Assembly (NCBI RefSeq): GCF_024223415.1
Contig: NZ_CP100500.1
Reading direction: 5' to 3' (one strand)
Length of the DNA: 64,000 bases
Source: Escherichia coli
GTDB lineage: Bacteria > Pseudomonadota > Gammaproteobacteria > Enterobacterales > Enterobacteriaceae
Each line of letters opens with the position of its first letter. The first letter of the stretch is position 1. This document shows, piece after piece, positions 2,510 to 51,978 of the stretch. Below the pieces are notes generated by a model. That model was not told the DNA's origin and searched no databases. It saw only the letters and a program-made list of their open reading frames with translations. The translations under genes were made by a program, and so were the position numbers.

Positions 2510-6025
<3,516 letters not shown>

Positions 6026-6046: not shown

Positions 6047-6145
6047 GCCTGATGCGCTACGCTTATCAGGCCTACGAAAATCTTGCAATGTATTGAATTT
6101 TCATGATTTTGTAGGCCGGATAAGGCGTTCACGCCGCATCCGGCA
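6047..6145. repeat. REP/BIME-type palindromic element (two REP-like palindromes)
   Basis: gcctgatgcgctacgcttatcaggcctac and gtaggccggataaggcgttcacgccgcatccggca match the enterobacterial REP pattern. Confidence 0.7.
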
Positions 6146-16210: not shown

Positions 16211-16307
16211 CGTAGCCGATGAGGACGCGCCTGATGGGTGTTCTGGCTACCTGACCTGTCCATTGTGGAAGGTCTTACATTCTCGCTGATTTCAGGAGCT
16301 ATTGATT

Positions 16308-16721
16308 ATGCGTAACTTTGATTTATCCCCGCTTTACCGTTCTGCTATTGGATTTGACCGTTTGTTTAACCACTTAGAAAACAACCAGAGCCAGAGTAAT
16401 GGCGGCTACCCTCCGTATAACGTTGAACTGGTAGACGAAAACCATTACCGCATTGCTATCGCTGTGGCTGGTTTTGCTGAGAGCGAACTGGAAATTACCG
16501 CCCAGGATAATCTGCTGGTGGTGAAAGGTGCTCATGCCGACGAACAAAAAGAGCGCACCTATCTGTACCAGGGCATCGCTGAACGCAACTTTGAACGCAA
16601 ATTCCAGTTAGCTGAGAACATTCATGTTCGTGGTGCTAACCTGGTAAATGGTTTGCTGTATATCGATCTCGAACGCGTGATTCCGGAAGCGAAAAAACCG
16701 CGCCGTATCGAAATCAACTAA
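16308..16721 (+). CDS. ibpA: Small heat shock protein IbpA (137 aa)
   Basis: Alpha-crystallin-domain translation [21 protein letters not shown]...; paralog pair with ibpB. Confidence 0.95.
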
Positions 16722-30861: not shown

Positions 30862-30967
30862 ATATTTGGACAAAACGCAAACTGTGATCGATACTCAACT
30901 ATGCACTAAATACGTCAAAATTCGTGCCGAAATTGCGCGTTCTGCGCGGAACACGTATACTTTCAGT

Positions 30968-31042
30968 GTTGACATAATACAGTGTGCTTTGCGGTTACCA
31001 GCCGCAGGCGACTGACGAAACCTCGCTCCGGCGGGGTTTTTT
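30968..31042 (+). ncRNA. istR: IstR-1 antitoxin sRNA (approximate ends; IstR-2 would start upstream, near 30.9 kb)
   Basis: TATACT -10-like hexamer at 30956-30961; the 5' region (30969-30994) is a near-repeat of 30711-30737, i.e. antisense to the tisAB leader about 105-130 nt upstream of the tisB start; T-run at about 31036-31042. Confidence 0.5.
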
Positions 31043-41755: not shown

Positions 41756-42208
41756 ATGATCTGGATAATGCTCGCCACGCTGGCAGTGGTGTTTGTGGTT
41801 GGTTTTCGGGTGCTGACATCCGGGGCCAGAAAAGCGATTCGCCGTCTCAGCGATCGGCTGAATATCGATGTCATACCCGTGGAGTCGATGGTCGATCAAA
41901 TGGGAAAGTCAGCCGGTGACGAATTTTTACGTTATTTGCATCGTCCGGATGAGTCGCACCTGCAAAACGCCGCGCAGGTGTTGCTCATCTGGCAAATTGT
42001 CATTGTCGATGGTAGCGAACAGAACCTGCTGCAATGGCATCGGATTTTACAAAAAGCCCGTCTTGCCGCGCCGATTACCGATGCTCAGGTCAGGCTGGCG
42101 CTGGGGTTTCTGCGCGAAACCGAACCTGAAATGCAGGATATTAATGCTTTTCAGATGCGCTATAACGCGTTCTTTCAGCCTGCCGAGGGCGTTCACTGGC
42201 TGCATTAA
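41756..42208 (+). CDS. yicN: Uncharacterized protein YicN (DUF1198, 150 aa)
   Basis: ORF with N-terminal TM helix starting MIWIMLATLAVVFVVGF. Confidence 0.75.
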   Translation: MIWIMLATLAVVFVVGFRVLTSGARKAIRRLSDRLNIDVIPVESMVDQMGKSAGDEFLRYLHRPDESHLQNAAQVLLIWQIVIVDGSEQNLLQWHRILQKARLAAPITDAQVRLALGFLRETEPEMQDINAFQMRYNAFFQPAEGVHWLH

Positions 42209-42218
42209 AACCGCTTCG

Positions 42219-42282
42219 TCTTATCAGCCTACAGACCGCGCCTGACCTGTCGGGTGGATAAGACGTTCACGCCGCATCCGGT
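42219..42282. repeat. REP-like palindromic element between yicN and nepI
   Basis: ggataagacgttcacgccgcatccgg resembles the REP consensus. Confidence 0.5.
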
Positions 42283-42418
42283 AATCTTTGCCCTGTTCCG
42301 TTTCGATCTTAACTCCAGCTCAAGCAACACCGTAAAAGTTGCAAAAACGTTAAATGCGTCACACATTTCAATGTTAAAGTGGTCGGCTTTTCCCCTGAAA
42401 CATGCCACGGGTAACACC

Positions 42419-43609
42419 ATGAGTGAATTTATTGCCGAAAACCGCGGCGCGGATGCCATCACCCGACCGAACTGGTCAGCCGTTTTCTCGGTGGCGTTTT
42501 GTGTCGCCTGTCTGATTATCGTTGAGTTTTTGCCCGTCAGTTTGTTGACGCCAATGGCCCAGGATTTAGGCATTTCGGAAGGGGTTGCCGGGCAATCGGT
42601 GACCGTGACCGCCTTTGTGGCAATGTTTGCCAGTTTGTTTATTACCCAGACAATTCAGGCTACTGACCGCCGCTACGTTGTTATTTTGTTTGCCGTTTTG
42701 CTGACGCTCTCCTGCTTGCTGGTTTCCTTTGCTAACTCATTCAGTTTGCTTTTAATCGGTCGTGCCTGTCTGGGGCTGGCGCTGGGCGGGTTCTGGGCGA
42801 TGTCGGCGTCGCTGACCATGCGTCTGGTGCCGCCGCGTACGGTGCCGAAGGCGCTGTCGGTGATCTTCGGCGCGGTTTCTATTGCGCTGGTGATTGCCGC
42901 GCCGTTGGGCAGTTTTTTAGGCGAGCTTATCGGTTGGCGCAATGTCTTTAATGCGGCGGCGGTGATGGGCGTGCTGTGTATTTTCTGGATTATCAAATCA
43001 TTGCCTTCACTGCCAGGCGAACCCTCGCATCAGAAACAAAATACTTTCCGCTTATTACAACGTCCGGGTGTGATGGCAGGGATGATCGCCATCTTCATGT
43101 CTTTCGCCGGGCAGTTTGCTTTCTTCACGTATATTCGCCCGGTGTATATGAACCTGGCGGGATTCGGCGTGGATGGCTTAACGCTGGTGCTGTTGAGTTT
43201 TGGTATCGCCAGCTTTATTGGTACGTCGCTTTCGTCGTTCATTCTTAAACGTTCGGTAAAACTGGCCTTAGCAGGCGCGCCGTTAATACTGGCTGTGAGT
43301 GCGTTGGTACTGACGTTGTGGGGAAGCGATAAAATCATTGCTACCGGCGTGGCGATTATCTGGGGGCTAACTTTTGCATTGGTTCCCGTCGGCTGGTCAA
43401 CGTGGATCACCCGCTCGCTGGCCGATCAGGCAGAAAAAGCCGGGTCTATTCAGGTGGCGGTTATTCAGCTTGCTAATACCTGTGGCGCGGCAATCGGCGG
43501 TTATGCGCTGGATAATATTGGTCTGACTTCGCCGTTGATGTTGTCCGGCACATTGATGTTGCTGACTGCATTGTTGGTTACTGCAAAGGTGAAAATGAAG
43601 AAATCCTGA
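42419..43609 (+). CDS. nepI: Purine ribonucleoside efflux pump NepI (MFS, 396 aa)
   Basis: MFS translation from [19 protein letters not shown]; the track ORF extends upstream through the REP. Confidence 0.85.
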
Positions 43610-43649
43610 TATCAGGTAAAGAAGCGTTGGTCAGTAGTTGTTGCTGTTC

Positions 43650-43943
43650 TTACATATCCGGGCATTCTACCTTACCCAACGCTTCCCAATAATTGCTCTG
43701 ATTATTACGTTCCATCGCCACGATGGCCTCGCGTATATGTTGTTTATTGTTTTCATCTGACAACATTAACTTTTCCCACGCTTCATCTGATAATGACGCC
43801 TGTGGCGTGCAAATTTTACGTAAATCTTGTAATACCGTGGTTTTCTCTTTTGCGGACTGCAGTGAGCTAAAAGGCGACTCGGCGTATACGATGCCTGGCA
43901 TAGCGAAAAAAGTGAAAATAAGCAGTAGTGTCGTTGGTTTCAT
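43650..43943 (-). CDS. yicS: Uncharacterized secreted protein YicS (97 aa)
   Basis: Small ORF with N-terminal signal peptide (MKPTTLLLIFTFFAMPGIVYA). Confidence 0.75.
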   Translation of the reverse strand: MKPTTLLLIFTFFAMPGIVYAESPFSSLQSAKEKTTVLQDLRKICTPQASLSDEAWEKLMLSDENNKQHIREAIVAMERNNQSNYWEALGKVECPDM

Positions 43944-44164
43944 GGATTCAACCTTTTACAAATGTGTATCGAATGAAGCATAAGTGTAGTTTGCTTTCAT
44001 CGCTCTCATCATGCTGTACGAAACGCGCTTGCGTGGTCAGTAAGAAGTGCCAGACTTTATATTCCACTTTTATTCCTTTTTATTCTTATCGATAGCGTTT
44101 CGTTTTTTAAACCGCAGCGACCTTACCGCTATAGTCAGGTAATCATTAATAAAAGGATAAAAAA

Positions 44165-44983
44165 ATGAAACTGACAACACATCATCTACGGACAGGGGCC
44201 GCATTATTGCTGGCCGGAATTCTGCTGGCAGGTTGCGACCAGAGTATCAGCGATGCAAAACACATTAAAGTTGGCGTTATAAATGGCGCAGAACAAGATG
44301 TCGCGGAAGTCGCTAAAAAGGTGGCAAAAGAGAAATATGGCCTCGATGTTGAACTGGTAGGATTTAGCGGTTCGTTGCTACCGAACGATGCGACAAATCA
44401 TGGCGAACTTGATGCGAATGTCTTCCAGCATCGACCCTTTCTTGAACAAGATAATCAGGCGCATGGTTATAAACTGGTAGCGGTGGGAAATACGTTTGTC
44501 TTCCCTATGGCGGGTTATTCCAAAAAAATCAAAACCGTGGCGCAAATAAAAGAAGGCGCGACAGTGGCGATCCCCAACGACCCGACCAACCTTGGTCGCG
44601 CACTTTTACTGTTGCAAAAAGAGAAGCTAATTACTCTGAAAGAGGGAAAAGGGTTATTACCTACCGCGCTGGATATAACCGATAATCCTCGTCATTTGCA
44701 GATTATGGAACTCGAGGGGGCGCAGCTCCCGCGCGTACTGGATGATCCCAAAGTTGATGTAGCGATTATCAGCACCACTTACATTCAGCAGACCGGGCTT
44801 TCTCCGGTGCACGACAGCGTATTTATTGAAGATAAGAATTCGCCGTATGTGAATATTTTGGTGGCACGGGAAGATAATAAGAATGCAGAAAACGTGAAGG
44901 AATTTCTGCAATCTTATCAATCACCCGAAGTCGCTAAAGCGGCAGAAACCATTTTTAACGGTGGCGCGGTGCCTGGCTGGTAA
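44165..44983 (+). CDS. nlpA: Lipoprotein-28, MetQ-like methionine-binding lipoprotein (272 aa)
   Basis: Signal peptide with lipobox (LLAGCDQ) and substrate-binding-protein body. Confidence 0.9.
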   Translation: MKLTTHHLRTGAALLLAGILLAGCDQSISDAKHIKVGVINGAEQDVAEVAKKVAKEKYGLDVELVGFSGSLLPNDATNHGELDANVFQHRPFLEQDNQAHGYKLVAVGNTFVFPMAGYSKKIKTVAQIKEGATVAIPNDPTNLGRALLLLQKEKLITLKEGKGLLPTALDITDNPRHLQIMELEGAQLPRVLDDPKVDVAIISTTYIQQTGLSPVHDSVFIEDKNSPYVNILVAREDNKNAENVKEFLQSYQSPEVAKAAETIFNGGAVPGW

Positions 44984-44986
44984 TTC

Positions 44987-45910
44987 TCACTTATGCCGCG
45001 CCGGACGATTTATTTTTCTGGCGCGGCGACGGGAATCCATTGAAATCAAAATCACCGATGACAGAATCAGCAGCGTTCCCAGCCAGTCCGGTAATGTGAA
45101 CGTGATCCCCAGCAACAGCAAAGAGAGTAGCGCGCTACTTAATGGTTCTGCACAGCTCAAAATGCTGGCTTTTGGACCGCCAATTAATTGTGCTCCTTTC
45201 AGGTACAGACTAAATGTCAGGGACGTACCAATGACCACCAAATAAAAAAACGCCAGAATCAAACTGCCGTTAACGACAAAGTTTGTTCCTTGTCTGGCAT
45301 AAAAAGGCAACAGAATCAGACCGCCAATCAGCATACTCCAGCCGACGACTGGTAACGTGCCATAGCGGGCAATTAGCGTTGAGGGATAGGTGGTATAGAA
45401 TGCAGCAGCAAATGCCGAGGCAATGCCCCAGAACAACGCGGCAGGAGAGATCGATAATGACGTCGGATTACCGTGTGTCACCAATAAAAAAGTCCCGACC
45501 AGCGATGTCAAAATAGCGCAGAAAACCAGAATGCCCGGGCGCGATTTACGCACCAGTGAGAACCAGGCGACGATAATCGTCGGTGAGAGGAATTGCAGCA
45601 CCGTTGCCGTGGCTGCGTTCGATTTTTCGATGGTTAGCAAAAAAGTGAGCTGTACAGTTAGCGCGCCAACCACGGAAAAAATCAGCAGGCTAATGGCATC
45701 TTTATGATTGTTAATAATAGAAAAGATTTTATCGCCATGAACAAATGACAGCGTCAGTAGAATCAAACCGGCGAATATCAAACGCGTCATAGTCAAAAAC
45801 TGCGACGACATCTGGCTTTGCTCCATGATGTATTGCGCGCAGACCCCTGAACTTCCCCACAACACGGCGGCAATCAGAACGTTCAGCATCCCCTTTCTGG
45901 TGGAACCCAT
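44987..45910 (-). CDS. yicL: EamA/DMT-family transporter YicL (307 aa)
   Basis: 10-TM duplicated EamA-like translation. Confidence 0.85.
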
Positions 45911-46020
45911 TTTTCCCTCTGCATACTGTTTTGTCGTTTATGTATGCAGGCATGATAGCAAAAATGGCGAGGATGGCTCTGTTTGCGCCACGCCGATTTT
46001 TCTTAGTCCAGACTGGTGAG

Positions 46021-47205
46021 CTAAATATCTTTAATAAACAGCAAGCAAATCATCGCAATACCCAACATCCCTATCGCCAGCCAGAACAACGCATGGTAGC
46101 TCCAGATTTCAACCATAATTCCGTCAACAGAGCCGGCGATAATCCAGCCGACGCGTGAAGTATTTGCATATAACGTTGTCGCAGAGCCTATTTTTTCAGG
46201 CATCAGGTCCTGAAAATAAAGCATGCCGATACCACAGAGAATACCAAGGAAGATGGCATTTAGAATTTGCAATTCCAGCTCAACTGCCGGAGTCGTCGCC
46301 ATGAGTACGCTGGCGTAAAAACACATTCCACTCACGATAGCAATGAGCATTAATAGCCGCTTGCCAATACGTTTCATGTAATAGCCTGCGATTAACATCA
46401 TCGGAATTTCCAGACCGGCAGCGATACCAATCATTTCTCCAGCCAGTTTATCGGTTAGATGCAGTTCATCAATAATAAATAGCGGCATATTTATCATGTA
46501 GAGATTATTCGCCGCCCACATCATTGAACAGACCACAAAAAGTAGCCGCGTATCCCGCTTCCTGTGGGTGGAGGGTAAAATTTCTATGGGTTGGGTAACG
46601 ACAGGAATATTTCTTTGTATTGATGGCAAAAACAACCAGACTATCAGTCCGCAAACAACAAATGCGATGGCAGCGGTGAGATACATCACTTTAAAACTAA
46701 ATCCCATAGCCAGTTCATAAGCGAGCGGTGGCCCGATAACCCAGGCAAGCGAGATCTGAGCACGTAAAAATGTACTGAACATGACCGTCTCACGGCCTGT
46801 TCTGTCGGCGTGTTCACGGGCGAGAGCGAACATTTGCGGGTTTGCGGTAGAAGCAAAACTACTCAGAAGTACGCCCGTAGAGAGCAGAATGAAGTAGTTG
46901 CGATTCCACGCAAAAAGCGTGCAGGCCAGCACTCCAAATAAGCAACATAGCAGGATCAGTAATTTACGGTCGCCTTGTTTATCGGAGTGCCTTGCCAGAA
47001 ATTGACTGACCAGAATTCCCATAATAGCGCTACCGGTGAAGAAAAAACCTACCATTATAGGACGGGCTTTCAGTTCATCTGCGAGGAATATACTTAGGGT
47101 AGGAGTCTGAAGAGCGCCCGCAATACCCGTCAGAAAGGCGACAAGTAAAAATGCCGCGGCAGTGAGATCAAGTATTTTTGATGGAGTGGTAGCCGTTTTT
47201 TGCAT
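46021..47205 (-). CDS. setC: Sugar efflux transporter SetC (MFS, 394 aa)
   Basis: MFS translation MQKTATTPSKILDLTAAAFLLVAFLTG...; last backbone gene before the island junction. Confidence 0.9.
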   Translation of the reverse strand: MQKTATTPSKILDLTAAAFLLVAFLTGIAGALQTPTLSIFLADELKARPIMVGFFFTGSAIMGILVSQFLARHSDKQGDRKLLILLCCLFGVLACTLFAWNRNYFILLSTGVLLSSFASTANPQMFALAREHADRTGRETVMFSTFLRAQISLAWVIGPPLAYELAMGFSFKVMYLTAAIAFVVCGLIVWLFLPSIQRNIPVVTQPIEILPSTHRKRDTRLLFVVCSMMWAANNLYMINMPLFIIDELHLTDKLAGEMIGIAAGLEIPMMLIAGYYMKRIGKRLLMLIAIVSGMCFYASVLMATTPAVELELQILNAIFLGILCGIGMLYFQDLMPEKIGSATTLYANTSRVGWIIAGSVDGIMVEIWSYHALFWLAIGMLGIAMICLLFIKDI

Positions 47206-47841
47206 TCTTCTGAATCACCGGGCGACAAAATATAACTGAGTTACAAATAAGTACCAGTCGAATGAGTATTGTATTAAGAATTTTTGAGTATCGCTGATAC
47301 AACCAGAAAACAATGCTAGCGCAATATTATAGGGCCAGCAATTGAGATTATTAGCAAAAGCATGTTAAGAATTAATCACCGAATTTATATTTAATTATAG
47401 TAAGGCAATGAGCTATTTTTGATAGTAAAAATAAAACAAGTTGATTTGATATATTAAATGAACAAATTAATCTTGATGGCAGTCTGATTATTGGTGAAGT
47501 TTATAGGTCAGTTTTTTTCGCCAGCTGTTAAAGGAATAGAACAGTCGTATAAAAAAGGGTGTTCTGGAGCGTGTAAAACAACATCTTCACCTTAATGGCG
47601 ATACAGTTGGCTGAGAGTCAGCAGGGGGGCAAATCACCTGCAAATAAACACGGCGCATGCTGGCGCGAATATCGCGGATGCGTTCGAGGACAGAAGAACC
47701 GACAGGCGGATTCTTCAGTCGCTCATCGTCCATCACAAAACCTTTGATCAGGTATTCCTGAAGCCGATTGAATATTGAGCAGTAGAAAATCTCTGGATTG
47801 ACAGTATTACAAGGGGTTGGAGAATGTCAGAAGAGGCATTT

Positions 47842-47864
47842 TGGCGGAGATCACAGGAGTCGAA
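47842..47864 (-). repeat. Imperfect direct repeat of the 3' end of tRNA-Sec (selC), the distal att junction of a selC-integrated island
   Basis: Minus strand reads TTCGACTCCTGTGATCTCCGCCA, the selC 3' end with one base missing (as I recall the tRNA); backbone lies on one side, island cargo on the other. Confidence 0.7.
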
Positions 47865-47996
47865 TATAAGTATTAATGCATTGATCTTAAATAATTTGTA
47901 TGTATTGGATAAATGAGTAACCCCCATAAGAACCCCCAAATGATTTTGCATGAAGGAATGAAGCTAAAATACATGATTGAATCAATTCTTAGTACT

Positions 47997-48842
47997 CTAT
48001 TGTGAAGGTAACATTTCCGGATAGTGTCTGGCTATAATATCATTTAGCCGATCAACCAGTTCTGGTTTCCTGAACGTGATGTGCGCGGAGCCTTTCTTAA
48101 AGTATCTGATGCTGAACATCTCATCTTCATAGCACTCTTTACCCTGAACAGACCGGATGTGATCATCCAGATGAATGGTGATGTTTTCCCGGTTGTCGGG
48201 GATCGGTTTACCGCTGAACAGGTGCAACATTCTTTCCAGATCGGCGAGTCGGTCAGCCTGTTGCCCGGTGATAAGATGAAATCCCCACCGGTCCCACCTT
48301 ACTAGGTTGTTAATGATAATTTTACTGCCAAATTTACAGGGGCAATTAGTTTTGTAATTCCAGCTCAGTCCCCTGAAGACGTTGATCACCCCTCGCTCAA
48401 ACACTTCATCTTTGTTCTGGTGCAGTTGTTTAAATGTGCTCAGAATGTTCGCTTCACTGATTTCCGGAAAATTATCGTACTCCAGTGACCGGTACCATGT
48501 ATCACGGGCCTGCGCATCCATTAATGACAGCATCCCGGAACGTTGCATCAGGTCACGCCAGATTTCGCGGTCAAGGTTGCGGGTGATGGCTTTCATTGCT
48601 GTTTCAGGTTTCTCCATGAGCCAGCATCCGCAGCGAAAATCCTGTTTCATCGCCCAGTCCCGTGCGCTTTTACCACCAATGCTTTTTGTCAGTACTGAGA
48701 TTTCAGTCAGTTGCCGGATAAGCGTTTCGGTTTGTTGCAGTGCTGCATTCCGTACCGTCACAACGTGTCGGATACTGGTGGAGCAGATAACGTCCGTATT
48801 CCCGGTGACCACTTCCGGATGGGAGATTGTGATGTTTGACAT
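47997..48842 (-). CDS. Hypothetical protein, probably DUF4942 family (281 aa)
   Basis: Intact ORF downstream of the CbtA module; domain assignment is recalled from annotations of this gene neighbourhood, not computed. Confidence 0.55.
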   Translation of the reverse strand: MSNITISHPEVVTGNTDVICSTSIRHVVTVRNAALQQTETLIRQLTEISVLTKSIGGKSARDWAMKQDFRCGCWLMEKPETAMKAITRNLDREIWRDLMQRSGMLSLMDAQARDTWYRSLEYDNFPEISEANILSTFKQLHQNKDEVFERGVINVFRGLSWNYKTNCPCKFGSKIIINNLVRWDRWGFHLITGQQADRLADLERMLHLFSGKPIPDNRENITIHLDDHIRSVQGKECYEDEMFSIRYFKKGSAHITFRKPELVDRLNDIIARHYPEMLPSQ

Positions 48843-48926
48843 TATCGGTTTCCCTTTTGGTTTATAAACGAAAACGCCAGCCGTATTCAGGCTGGCGTCA
48901 GTGGAATGAAGTCTGGTGAGTAAGGC

Positions 48927-49124
48927 TCACCGGTTCTGTTGCAGAAGCTGCAGTTGGCGCAGGGTATGGATATCCTCCCTCGCCTGTTCAATGCAGGGCA
49001 GCAGTGCTGCCGAATCCGTTTTATCCTCATCGTTGTCAAAGATAATTCCCGATTCGCAGTCGATATTGTCCTGCAGCCACGCAATCAGAATATCCAGTGC
49101 TGTTTCCGTGGTTAATGATTTCAT
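48927..49124 (-). CDS. Small YeeW-like protein, probably DUF957 (65 aa from MKSLTTETALD; track ORF extends to 49169)
   Basis: Small ORF immediately downstream of the DUF5983-like gene. Confidence 0.5.
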   Translation of the reverse strand: MKSLTTETALDILIAWLQDNIDCESGIIFDNDEDKTDSAALLPCIEQAREDIHTLRQLQLLQQNR

Positions 49125-49135
49125 GTTGTTCCTGG

Positions 49136-49624
49136 TTACCAGTTGAAAGTGGGTAAACCCGGCAGGCATTCAGAGCTGGCATCCAGATGAATGAGACTGA
49201 CGCCATAACGTCGGGTAAGTGTGACAACCAGACAACGGAACGTTTTTGACAGGCCCAGGCGCTTAAGCCGCAGAACCGGGTATGACCACGCATCGGTACG
49301 TAACAGATAGCCGCTACCTGTGAAATGAATCCATTCTGATTCACCAACGTCACTGGTCTGATGCGACAGCGAGTACAGCCAGGCGTTATCCTTTTCCGTG
49401 ATATGTGCGGTACTGCAGCGTATGCCGGCAAGGGTTGCAAACGGTGGTAGTGTGCAGGTTGACTGTTGGTCGGATTCCTCCACCACGCGGAGTGAATAAC
49501 CGTTTTCAGCGACCTTGTTAATCAGTTCAGTGAGATTAACACCATCGACGTCAACGACAATTTGCCCCATGTTCAGTGCCTGCACATTAATTCTGTCGGC
49601 TTCCAGCATCAGGGAAAGTTTCAT
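49136..49624 (-). CDS. Hypothetical protein, probably DUF5983 family (162 aa)
   Basis: ORF whose start overlaps the cbtA stop by 4 nt. Confidence 0.55.
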
Positions 49625-49995
49625 CGTTTCTCCGGATGCTTACCCAGGGTAATGTTATTTACCGTTCTGTAATTGTCGCGGGTCATCAGGCCGGTCGCCC
49701 GGCGAGCCCGGAGGATATCAATACTGTTTATTAACTGAGAGCGGGGACAAGTGCTGAATCCCGGCTGGTTGGTACGCACCAGCGCGTATTTTTCCACGAG
49801 AAAATTCACCGCATCACACAGTGAAATGCCAGCTTCAATATGCTGCTCAATCACACGTTCATCGGCGAACGGTGTGTCATTCAGTGTAAGGCCGTAATGC
49901 TGGCCCAGTAGTCGGGAGAGCAGAGTCTGCCAGATGGTGACGGGAGACGGGCAGCTCGATGCCTCCCGTACGTGTGTATCGGGTAATGTTTTCAT
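49621..49995 (-). CDS. cbtA: Type IV toxin CbtA/YeeV family (cytoskeleton-binding toxin, 124 aa)
   Basis: Translation [43 protein letters not shown]... with its antitoxin partner upstream. Confidence 0.8.
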
Positions 49996-50084
49996 ACTGA
50001 AGGTTTTCCTGATATGCAGAGATGAAAAATGGAAAAGTGGCGTGGTGAAAGCACCAGGCCGGAGCAGAAGGTTATTCCGGTGGT

Positions 50085-50453
50085 TTACTTTTTCGTTTCG
50101 GGCGTCGGATAAACAGCCAGATAAACGTAACCACAGGAGCCGAGGGTGTCGGCTTCGCAGGTCAGCCCTTTCGCATACAGCGTGACGGTATGCTGATGTC
50201 GGGGATTCAGTTCACCGCTGGTGAGCATGAGTTCCAGTTGTTTCATCAGCAGCGGAAAGGCCTGGTCCAGATGGTATGCATCTGCGTCGCTGAAGCGGCC
50301 TCTGATACCGGCGCGGTCGGCAAGGTAATGCAGGCGGTTACCCTCCTGCACCAGACGAGCGCCAAAACAGGGCCTCACTGTGCAGGGAAGCCCCCACCAG
50401 GGGCGGTCGTGATTGTCGTCGGGATGAGTTATCCCGGAGAGTTTGTCTGACAC
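50085..50453 (-). CDS. cbeA: Type IV antitoxin CbeA/YeeU family (122 aa)
   Basis: Translation [49 protein letters not shown]...; directly upstream of cbtA. Confidence 0.8.
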
Positions 50454-50615
50454 GATAAAATCCTCTCTGAAAAGTGGTTAAGAATGGTTTAATGATGACA
50501 GGTCAGCCGGCGCGCTGACCGGTTTCGGTGAAGGTGTATTCGTTGATGAGAATGGCCTCATCCACAGCGGCGTCTGAGGTCATCTGGTCGTACTCGTTTC
50601 CCGGGTGACGGAACA

Positions 50616-50837
50616 TCAGTTCAGGGTGACACTCATCAGCCGGACATACGGGCCAAAACTGTCCTTACGGCGTTCTGCAAATACAGCCAGCACACCGGGA
50701 ATATCCTGCACTTCACGACCGGTATACGCTTCAGTGCCACCATGCCAGCGGTATTTGCCGGTACAGAACGGAAAAAGACGGGATGCAGGATGCTGACGGT
50801 GAATACGCATGGCTTCACCACGGGTGATGATTTTCAT
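50616..50837 (-). CDS. YeeT-like protein (DUF987, 73 aa)
   Basis: Small ORF between the RadC-like gene and cbeA, the usual position for YeeT-like genes. Confidence 0.6.
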   Translation of the reverse strand: MKIITRGEAMRIHRQHPASRLFPFCTGKYRWHGGTEAYTGREVQDIPGVLAVFAERRKDSFGPYVRLMSVTLN

Positions 50838-50905
50838 AGTGTGATACCTCTGAAGACAGAAGATAAAAGTGAAAACAGGTGTGATGTGGTTGTGACGGTG
50901 ACGGG

Positions 50906-51397
50906 TTAAAGCAGACCGTGTTCCGCAAAGGAGAAAACCTGGCTGCCACCGATTATCAGATGGTCCGGCACCCGGATATCCACCAGGGCCAGTGCCTGTA
51001 CCAGACGTTCCGTAATAAGGCGGTCTGCCTTGCTGGGTGTGACTTCACCTGACGGGTGATTGTGTGCCAGCACCACGGCAGCGGCATTGTGATACAGGGC
51101 GCGTTTAATCACTTCCCGGGGATGGACTTCCGTGCGGTTGATGGTGCCGGTGAAGAGGGTTTCACCGGCAATCAGCTGATTCTGGTTATTCAGATACAGC
51201 ACCCGGAACTCTTCACGCTCCAGTCCCGCCATGTTCAGAATCAGCCATTCCCGTGCCGCACGGGTGGAGGTGAAGGCCACACCGGGTTCATGAAGATGGC
51301 GGTCCAGGGTTTTCAGAGCCCGCAGAATGAGACTGCGCTCGCCGGGCGTCATTTCTCCGGGCAGAAAGGAAAGCTGCTGCATTGTCCCTGCCTCCAT
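50906..51397 (-). CDS. RadC-like JAB/MPN-domain protein (YeeS/YfjY family; true start possibly at 51352, MTPGERSL)
   Basis: JAMM-like motif HNHPSGEVTPSKAD is present in the translation. Confidence 0.75.
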   Translation of the reverse strand: MEAGTMQQLSFLPGEMTPGERSLILRALKTLDRHLHEPGVAFTSTRAAREWLILNMAGLEREEFRVLYLNNQNQLIAGETLFTGTINRTEVHPREVIKRALYHNAAAVVLAHNHPSGEVTPSKADRLITERLVQALALVDIRVPDHLIIGGSQVFSFAEHGLL

Positions 51398-51883
51398 TCA
51401 GTCGATGATGCGCATAATGGCGCTGCATTCCGGATGCTGCAGGGCGTAATCCCGCAGCCGGTAATAATGGACCGTCATGGCATAACACTCCGTACGACAG
51501 GCGTGATGACTGTACGTCATCAGACAGGCAGCAATGCCGGCGGCTTCCGGGCTCATTTCAGCGCGGTTACCGTTCATGGCATTGAACAGTACCCATGTTT
51601 CGCCATCATCGTCATCCGGTTCGGGCGCTATAAATGCGCCACCGTTGTTCAGTGTGTACAGATTCCAGATACCACCGCAGTAGTCTTCGCAAAGACGGTC
51701 CATCCAGCCGAAGATACGGGGCTCCAGGGTCACCCACTGTGGAATGAGGCAAAAATGCTGCGGCCAGAAGCTGATGCGCTGTTCATCAGGGACTATGGTG
51801 GCAACCAGCTGAGGCTGGTCATTCCCTGATGCAGCGGTTACGGAAACAGAAGATGTGGTGGAATTATGTGAAATGGTTTTCAT
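51398..51883 (-). CDS. Antirestriction protein (KlcA/ArdB-like, YfjX family)
   Basis: Translation from MKTISHNSTTSSVSVTAASGNDQPQLVATIVPDEQRISFW...; ATG at 51883 preceded by AAGGAG; the track ORF starts at an upstream TTG inside the tandem duplication. Confidence 0.75.
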   Translation of the reverse strand: MKTISHNSTTSSVSVTAASGNDQPQLVATIVPDEQRISFWPQHFCLIPQWVTLEPRIFGWMDRLCEDYCGGIWNLYTLNNGGAFIAPEPDDDDGETWVLFNAMNGNRAEMSPEAAGIAACLMTYSHHACRTECYAMTVHYYRLRDYALQHPECSAIMRIID

Positions 51884-51964
51884 GAAATGACTCCTTAAAG
51901 GACAAATAAATGCGTGGTTTTCATGAAATGACTCCTTAAAGGACAAATAAATGCGTGGTTTTCA
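51875..51964. repeat. Perfect 41-bp tandem duplication (2 full copies plus an 8-bp partial third) over the RBS and start codon of the antirestriction gene
   Basis: ggttttcatgaaatgactccttaaaggacaaataaatgcgt occurs at 51875-51915 and 51916-51956, followed by ggttttca at 51957-51964. Confidence 0.95.
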
Positions 51965-51978
51965 GGGTAATGGCTGAA

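Follow-up and report, generated by a model that had tools for sequence, protein, structure and literature searches.

A displaced selC 3' end upstream of setC as the very probable distal attachment site of an AGI-3-family island in Escherichia coli

Introduction

Within a 64,000-nt stretch of Escherichia coli DNA (contig NZ_CP100500.1; hereafter the window, meaning the whole stretch that was analysed), a 23-nt sequence at positions 47842–47864 resembles the 3' end of selC, the gene for tRNA-Sec. A preliminary description of the region proposed that this sequence is the distal attachment site of an element integrated into selC, with the integrase and an intact tRNA gene lying past the end of the window. 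The locus thus raises the question of whether so short a sequence really is the trace of an integration event and, if so, which island it bounds and in what state the opposite end of that island is likely to be. P4-type integrases reportedly cross over in the T-loop region, the element itself carrying a replacement 3' end. Insertions at selC are associated with a 24-bp repeat (Saile et al., PMC6174562).

The selC-derived repeat

The minus strand of 47842–47864 reads TTCGACTCCTGTGATCTCCGCCA, and the last 24 nt of the K-12 selC gene read TTCGACTCCTGTGATCTTCCGCCA. The two match at 23 of 24 nt, the repeat being one T short in the TT doublet; it is indeed, as originally described, the 3' end of tRNA-Sec minus one base. 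The pattern occurs only once in the 64-kb window, and 100 dinucleotide-preserving shuffles of the window yielded no match to it, even with three mismatches permitted; a chance origin of the repeat is thus excluded. Chance resemblance of the 23-mer to selC was rejected on these grounds and also because the flanking DNA is collinear with the K-12 selC–setC spacer. An ARAGORN scan of the window found no tRNA genes, and no tRNA is among the Rfam matches at gathering score over the whole window.

In the ARAGORN fold of selC, the 24-nt block is made up of the 7-nt T loop (TTCGACT), the 5-nt 3' strand of the T stem, the 8-nt 3' strand of the acceptor stem, the discriminator G, and CCA. The first base of the T loop is also that of the repeat, and the first 16 nt of the repeat (T loop, T-stem strand, and GATC) are undamaged; the 1-nt deletion falls in the 3' strand of the acceptor stem. 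From its sequence, the K-12 alignment, and the ARAGORN fold, 47842–47864 (minus strand) is taken to be an attR core: the 3' end that selC originally had on the chromosome, now displaced and short of 1 nt in its acceptor strand.

The chromosomal boundary

The first chromosomal gene outside the island is setC, an ORF at 46021–47205 (minus strand). Its start codon lies 636 nt from the repeat, in keeping with the ~637 bp first given and equal to the selC–setC gap in K-12. The native selC–setC spacer (47206–47841, minus strand) is collinear with K-12 and includes a yicT/RhuM-family pseudogene fragment at about 47602–47763; a rhuM/yicT fragment between the repeat and setC is also annotated in relatives, as it is in K-12. 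In a three-way alignment of the window, K-12, and USMARC-49610, collinearity with K-12 spans setC, the entire setC–selC spacer, and the last 24 nt of selC, and then parts. A BLAST search of the window with the K-12 segment yicH-yicI-yicJ-selC-setC-yicL-nlpA as the query gave one match, which begins with the first nucleotide of the 24-nt block; the window lacks the 5' 71 nt of selC, as well as yicJ, yicI, and yicH. The alignment to K-12 that had been suggested as a means of delimiting the insertion therefore places the divergence precisely where the selC T loop begins, and synteny with K-12, the island-free reference, breaks exactly at the repeat. The derivation of the 23-mer from selC is likewise upheld, because its flank is collinear with K-12 from nlpA through setC and the spacer, up to the very base at which the T loop starts. 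The G+C content gave no clear mark of the island boundary.

The same boundary bears on a different reading, in which a deletion destroyed the tRNA gene and the 23-mer is the stump that remains of selC; the genome would then have no intact selC, and the CP4-like DNA beyond the repeat would have arrived by some other route. The window does lack a tRNA-Sec gene, and the fragment does carry a deletion. Against this, the break falls exactly at the T-loop start, and the adjoining island sequence is the same in ~620–690 complete genomes, including F404, the closest complete relative, where the other end of the island has an intact selC. A canonical junction that recurs in this way is not what an accidental deletion would give, and we regard a stump of selC as highly improbable.

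The window runs from the dnaA region via ibpA and istR toward selC, which is the reverse of K-12. Four backbone RNAs recognized by Rfam, namely AsdA (antisense of dnaA; 511–591), ES036 (6068–6110), the ROSE_2 thermoregulator (16242–16314), and istR (30913–31042), occur in an order that fits a reversed K-12 dnaA-to-selC segment. The 20 nt directly 3' of the chromosomal selC (GCCTCTTCTGACATTCTCCAA) resemble the island-supplied flank in F404 (ACCTCTTCTGAACTCTCCCAA), and the "native" selC–setC spacer may be what is left of an earlier island; between the 23-mer and setC, no second, older selC-like repeat was found at up to three mismatches. The exact SetC allele of the window is common to strains with T3SS-translocator-type genes (Pfam T3SSipB and T3SS_TC; loci L014–L023) and a giant intimin/invasin-like gene, inserted where yicS adjoins the next gene of the backbone. 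The window and a near-identical draft genome are without the T3SS-type/intimin-like insertion beside yicS.

Gene content of the island within the window

From 47865 to the end of the window, the DNA is a CP4-44-like module, which agrees with the earlier characterization of everything beyond the repeat as CP4-like accessory cargo. Away from the repeat, the order is DUF4942, DUF957, DUF5983, cbtA/cbeA, DUF987, radC, antirestriction, DUF932, DUF905, irmA, yeeR, agn43, IsrC, and a yeeP-like GTPase; read in the other direction, the window has the CP4-44-like succession of yeeP GTPase, IsrC, agn43, yeeR, radC, DUF987, cbeA, and cbtA. Accessory and mobile cargo missing from the K-12 reference is thus present, both as this module and as elements of the IS66 and IS3 families. 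The module was identified by its 99.5% DNA identity to the annotated NCCP 13717, by the Pfam families of contig L035 of the near-identical draft, by NCBIfam (Ag43, RadC, and transposases), and by Rfam (IS102/IsrC); most of the small CP4-like proteins are not covered by NCBIfam models. Features are on the minus strand unless noted.

The island-side arm of attR is a non-coding terminus that separates the core from the first island gene (47865–47996), recognized by its divergence from K-12. BEN2908, F404-type strains, E100341, and ATCC 8739 have this same sequence after the repeat. It includes the motif TTTGGGGGTTCTTATGGGGGT at 47920–47940, i.e., 56–76 nt inside the island from the repeat, a putative integrase arm-type site. 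A partner motif, TTTGGGGGTACTTTAGGGGGT, which it matches, is found in F404 between selC and the integrase gene, where there are also further GGGGGT copies; these GGGGGT motifs are likely arm-type binding sites of the integrase. The same two motifs have been reported for AGI-3 and GIselC17584/1 as a second pair of repeats (PMC6174562).

The last gene of the island, encoding a DUF4942 protein (47997–48842), was identified by 100% protein identity to annotated relatives and by Pfam DUF4942 in L035. Next to it are the DUF957 and DUF5983 (yeeW-like) genes (48887–49624) and a cbtA/cbeA (yeeV/yeeU-type) toxin–antitoxin pair (49621–50453), then the DUF987 (yeeT-like), RadC (yeeS-like), and antirestriction genes (50616–51883) and the DUF932, DUF905, and irmA genes (51979–53664), all assigned from annotated relatives and Pfam matches in L035, with NCBIfam adding RadC. 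A yeeR-family gene follows (53740–56256). Beyond it, agn43, the gene for Ag43, is in pieces: its C-terminal 2.8 kb (56377–59202) carries a 2-nt deletion near 58183 and is cut off by an IS at 59203, and its 5' end, the first ~98 codons, is at 63086–63379. Between them lie ISEc8 (IS66 family; 59203–61644), which has terminal inverted repeats at both ends (22 nt, 82% complementary) and an 8-bp target duplication, GCCGGTAT, and an adjoining IS3-family element (IS1397-like; 61653–63085, plus strand). The gene is inactivated threefold, by the 2-nt deletion, by ISEc8, and by the IS3-family element. The IsrC sRNA (Rfam family IS102) is at 63398–63634; in the K-12 CP4-44, its place is presumably between flu and yeeP. 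The yeeP-like GTPase gene (63752–64000), also found in L027 and given coordinates mapped from NCCP 13717, is cut by the window end, and the island runs on past it.

Two local peculiarities were seen within the module. In the antirestriction gene, the start codon and its ribosome-binding region are covered by a perfect 41-nt tandem duplication (51874–51955), which NCCP 13717 lacks and which is present in the near-identical draft, a match without a gap. The DUF932 protein (51979–52797) has eight residues different from relatives that are otherwise 99–100% identical, and its exact sequence is found elsewhere mostly in CP4-like modules at other loci, beside T2SS, capsule, or restriction genes. This suggests that the DUF932 allele could be a recombination patch between island copies.

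Relationship to known islands

The island is a member of the published AGI-3 family and in that sense was already known; the boundary is correct but ordinary, selC being a textbook hot spot. AGI-3 is a 49.6-kb island associated with selC in BEN2908, an avian pathogenic E. coli strain (Chouikha et al. 2006, J Bacteriol 188:977, as cited in PMC2704930, PMC3325963, and PMC4807369), and irmA-yeeR-agn43 has been assigned to its module 5 (PMC4807369). The window island and AGI-3 are 99.0–99.7% identical in DNA over 47830–58506 and 63442–64000. They have the same integration site, the same island terminus with its GGGGGT motif, and the same order of distal modules (DUF4942, cbtA/cbeA, radC, antirestriction, DUF932, irmA, yeeR, agn43, and yeeP), and the near-identical draft runs on into the IS100 junction that BEN2908 also has. 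When the sequence of that draft just past the window end was used as the query, BEN2908 was among the best three matches, and in the BEN2908 record the modules follow one another in this same order, starting with DUF4942, as far as the fos (fructooligosaccharide) locus and onward toward the integrase end. The fos locus and integrase end of AGI-3 correspond to DNA outside the range of the window; a fos locus is present in the relatives F404, NCCP 13717, E100341, and USMARC-49610. The two islands also differ: the window has a 1-nt-deleted repeat and a setC flank, whereas BEN2908 has a 4-nt deletion (TTCC) and a hypothetical ORF in place of setC, and agn43 is broken by ISEc8 and an IS3-family element in the window but by another IS3-family insertion in BEN2908.

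PAI I536 of uropathogenic E. coli 536, described with a 16-bp direct repeat, shares with the window island the selC site, a terminal CP4-like module from DUF905 to DUF4942, and a distal repeat that starts with TTCGACTCCTGTGATC. Its cargo, in contrast, consists of haemolysin and fimbriae (PMC7545054). Its terminal module is also diverged (e.g., ~90% protein identity for DUF4942), its repeat carries a 4-nt deletion, and its flank is without an annotated setC.

CP4-44, the cryptic prophage of K-12 (yeeP-isrC-flu-yeeR-yeeS-yeeT-yeeU-yeeV-yeeW), has the same gene families in the same order, including IsrC and cbtA/cbeA, but the module in the window is the distal part of a larger selC island, whereas in K-12 we take CP4-44 to lie at a chromosomal locus other than selC. 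Copies of such a module recur in islands at several other loci, including beside sbcB-region genes (L004 and L011). Satellite phage P4 at leuX, the paradigm for P4-type integrases, is comparable in integrase domain architecture, as found in F404, and in integrating at the 3' end of a tRNA gene and bringing a replacement 3' end. P4 uses another tRNA target, however, and the element in the window is a large non-phage island.

The proximal end in related genomes

The window ends inside the island, and selC and the integrase were seen in relatives only. F404 has a ~47-kb island that is contiguous from the same junction to the integrase, tRNA-Sec, and yicJ. After the repeat, the order in F404 is the CP4-like module, IS100, an aldo/keto reductase fragment, an MFS pseudogene, ISEc27, the fos locus, an IS5 fragment, IS1, ykgR/GH31/MFS/LacI genes, IS3, a TPR gene, and a 394-aa integrase, followed by tRNA-Sec and yicJ. 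The domains of this integrase (Arm-DNA-bind_3, Phage_int_M, and Phage_integrase) form the P4-type architecture. The presence of the ykgR/GH31 genes in NCCP 13717 and E100341 had raised the possibility of an IS1-mediated inversion; this was ruled out because F404 shows that these genes belong to the island.

None of the complete E. coli genomes searched is identical to the window, the best being 99.1–99.5%, and the exact YeeR, SetC, and F404 integrase proteins are shared by many strains. For the 147-aa Ag43/IS chimera, no exact protein match was found. The draft assembly GCA_900482235.1, reached through the 122-aa N-terminal fragment of Ag43 and the DUF932 allele, comes much closer. Its contig L035 matches 41979–59314 with two mismatches and no gaps, the 1-nt-deleted repeat included, and a second contig (25 kb) matches 62973–64000 with one mismatch and runs on beyond the window; over the 10.4 kb examined, continuing past the window end, this second contig is 99.9% identical to F404. 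The assembly is a short-read draft with contigs that break at IS elements, so its island is not linked to selC. Extrapolation from F404, with 3.9 kb of IS DNA added, would place an intact selC near window-equivalent 98.8 kb, ~35 kb past the window end, and we predict that both the integrase and the intact selC are still present there in this genome.

A less orderly far end can also be envisaged, in which the repeat is the distal attachment site but the proximal end has been degraded or rearranged in this genome, with the integrase cut by IS1 or selC separated by IS activity, so that the island would be a fixed remnant and could no longer be mobilised. USMARC-49610 provides an example: it has the same junction, an intact tRNA-Sec, and yicJ, but IS1 has truncated its integrase and an IS3-family element has removed much of the island; moreover, the window island already has two IS insertions and an agn43 frameshift, and the att core itself is damaged. 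However, F404, with its 99.9% identity to the draft over 10 kb past the window, has its 394-aa integrase intact beside selC, and that exact integrase sequence is very widespread, adjoining yicJ with an intact selC between them in all 10 of 10 places among the matches listed. We therefore think a degraded proximal end unlikely.

Alleles of the repeat

The 1-nt-deleted allele of the window also occurs in E100341, ATCC 8739, and two draft assemblies, and an identical 63-mer (island end, repeat, and flank) was found in at least 132 complete E. coli genomes, a lower bound because short queries were used and a query with the full allele was confounded by partial matches to intact selC. The occurrence of the same allele in all of these genomes means that the missing base is a real allele and not a sequencing error. 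A perfect 24-nt distal repeat is present in USMARC-49610, NCCP 13717, and CP055019.1. In 536 (PAI I536) and BEN2908 (AGI-3), TTCGACTCCTGTGATC is directly followed by GCCA, which amounts to a 4-nt deletion of TTCC and explains why the literature gives a 16-bp repeat (TTCGACTCCTGTGATC) for AGI-3 as against the 24 bp of PMC6174562. The 1-nt and 4-nt deletions begin at the same position, directly after the 16-nt core.

Strains 536 and BEN2908 have different islands, yet they have in common both the 4-nt deletion and a flank without an annotated setC, while AGI-3-type islands were found with all three alleles (full, 1-nt-deleted, and 4-nt-deleted). In the few genomes examined, the 4-nt-deleted allele thus tracks the chromosomal flank and not the island, which fits a model that makes the distal copy the 3' end originally present in the chromosome.

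Empty selC sites

Three complete E. coli genomes have a damaged selC with no island beside it. HH45 (L051, NZ_CP116411.1) and EC16 (L052, NZ_CP189734.1) have yicJ, a 94-nt selC with the 1-nt deletion, the rhuM fragment, and the native flank, and no island; 702/18 (L053, NZ_CP074701.1) has, at an empty site, a 91-nt selC with the 4-nt deletion. In each record, tRNA-Sec at ~2960–3053 is the sole match. A decayed end fused to selC is what recombination between the two repeats would leave, and these three selC genes are probable excision scars, although they could in principle have come from independent deletions or gene conversion instead. The three strains may be without selenoprotein synthesis. 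A model post-excision selC, joined to the damaged end, is still recognized by ARAGORN as tRNA-Sec, but its acceptor stem is mispaired. SelB reportedly needs the 8-bp acceptor stem, and loss of PAI I from strain 536 is said to have damaged both selC and anaerobic formate metabolism.

Discussion

An AGI-3-family island is very probably integrated in selC, with the 23-mer as the core of its distal attachment site (attR). The original proposal of a distal attachment site for a selC-integrated element is thereby supported by the repeat itself, by the exact break in synteny, and by the same junction in relatives; in the close relatives, the full architecture between the two ends was observed. A P4-type tyrosine integrase would have recombined the attP of the island with selC, the crossover presumably falling inside the 24-nt block between the first T-loop base and the CCA end, with the 16-nt intact part as the likely crossover region. 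The position of the crossover, like the function of the arm-type sites, is proposed from the sequence and from general knowledge of P4-type integrases. The island would have supplied a new 24-nt copy, keeping selC intact at the integrase end, and the original chromosomal copy would have been displaced by ~47 kb to its present place just upstream of setC; it is that copy which the window would hold. No longer part of a tRNA, the displaced copy would be free to decay.

Excision would be expected to rejoin selC to this damaged end. A crossover in the intact 16-nt core would leave selC joined to an acceptor strand short by 1 nt in the lineage of the window, or by 4 nt in 536 and BEN2908, and the resulting tRNA-Sec would have a shortened or bulged acceptor stem and probably be unable to support the synthesis of selenoproteins (formate dehydrogenases). 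Repair would then be possible only by re-acquiring a selC island, which would bring a perfect 3' end. The decay of the displaced selC 3' end might in this manner make the island costly to lose. The shared starting point of the two deletions and the three natural, damaged selC genes at empty sites fit this idea, which we nevertheless put forward as tentative and somewhat doubtful.

The finding delimits one end of a ~50-kb accessory island and helps its annotation, and it says nothing new on the biology of islands; AGI-3-type islands in relatives carry sugar-utilisation genes, Ag43, and IrmA. Only the allele series of the displaced tRNA end, together with the natural scars, offers a mildly new angle. 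If the scar tRNA genes are non-functional, loss of the island would cost the cell its selenoproteins, and this could help to explain the persistent occupancy of selC.
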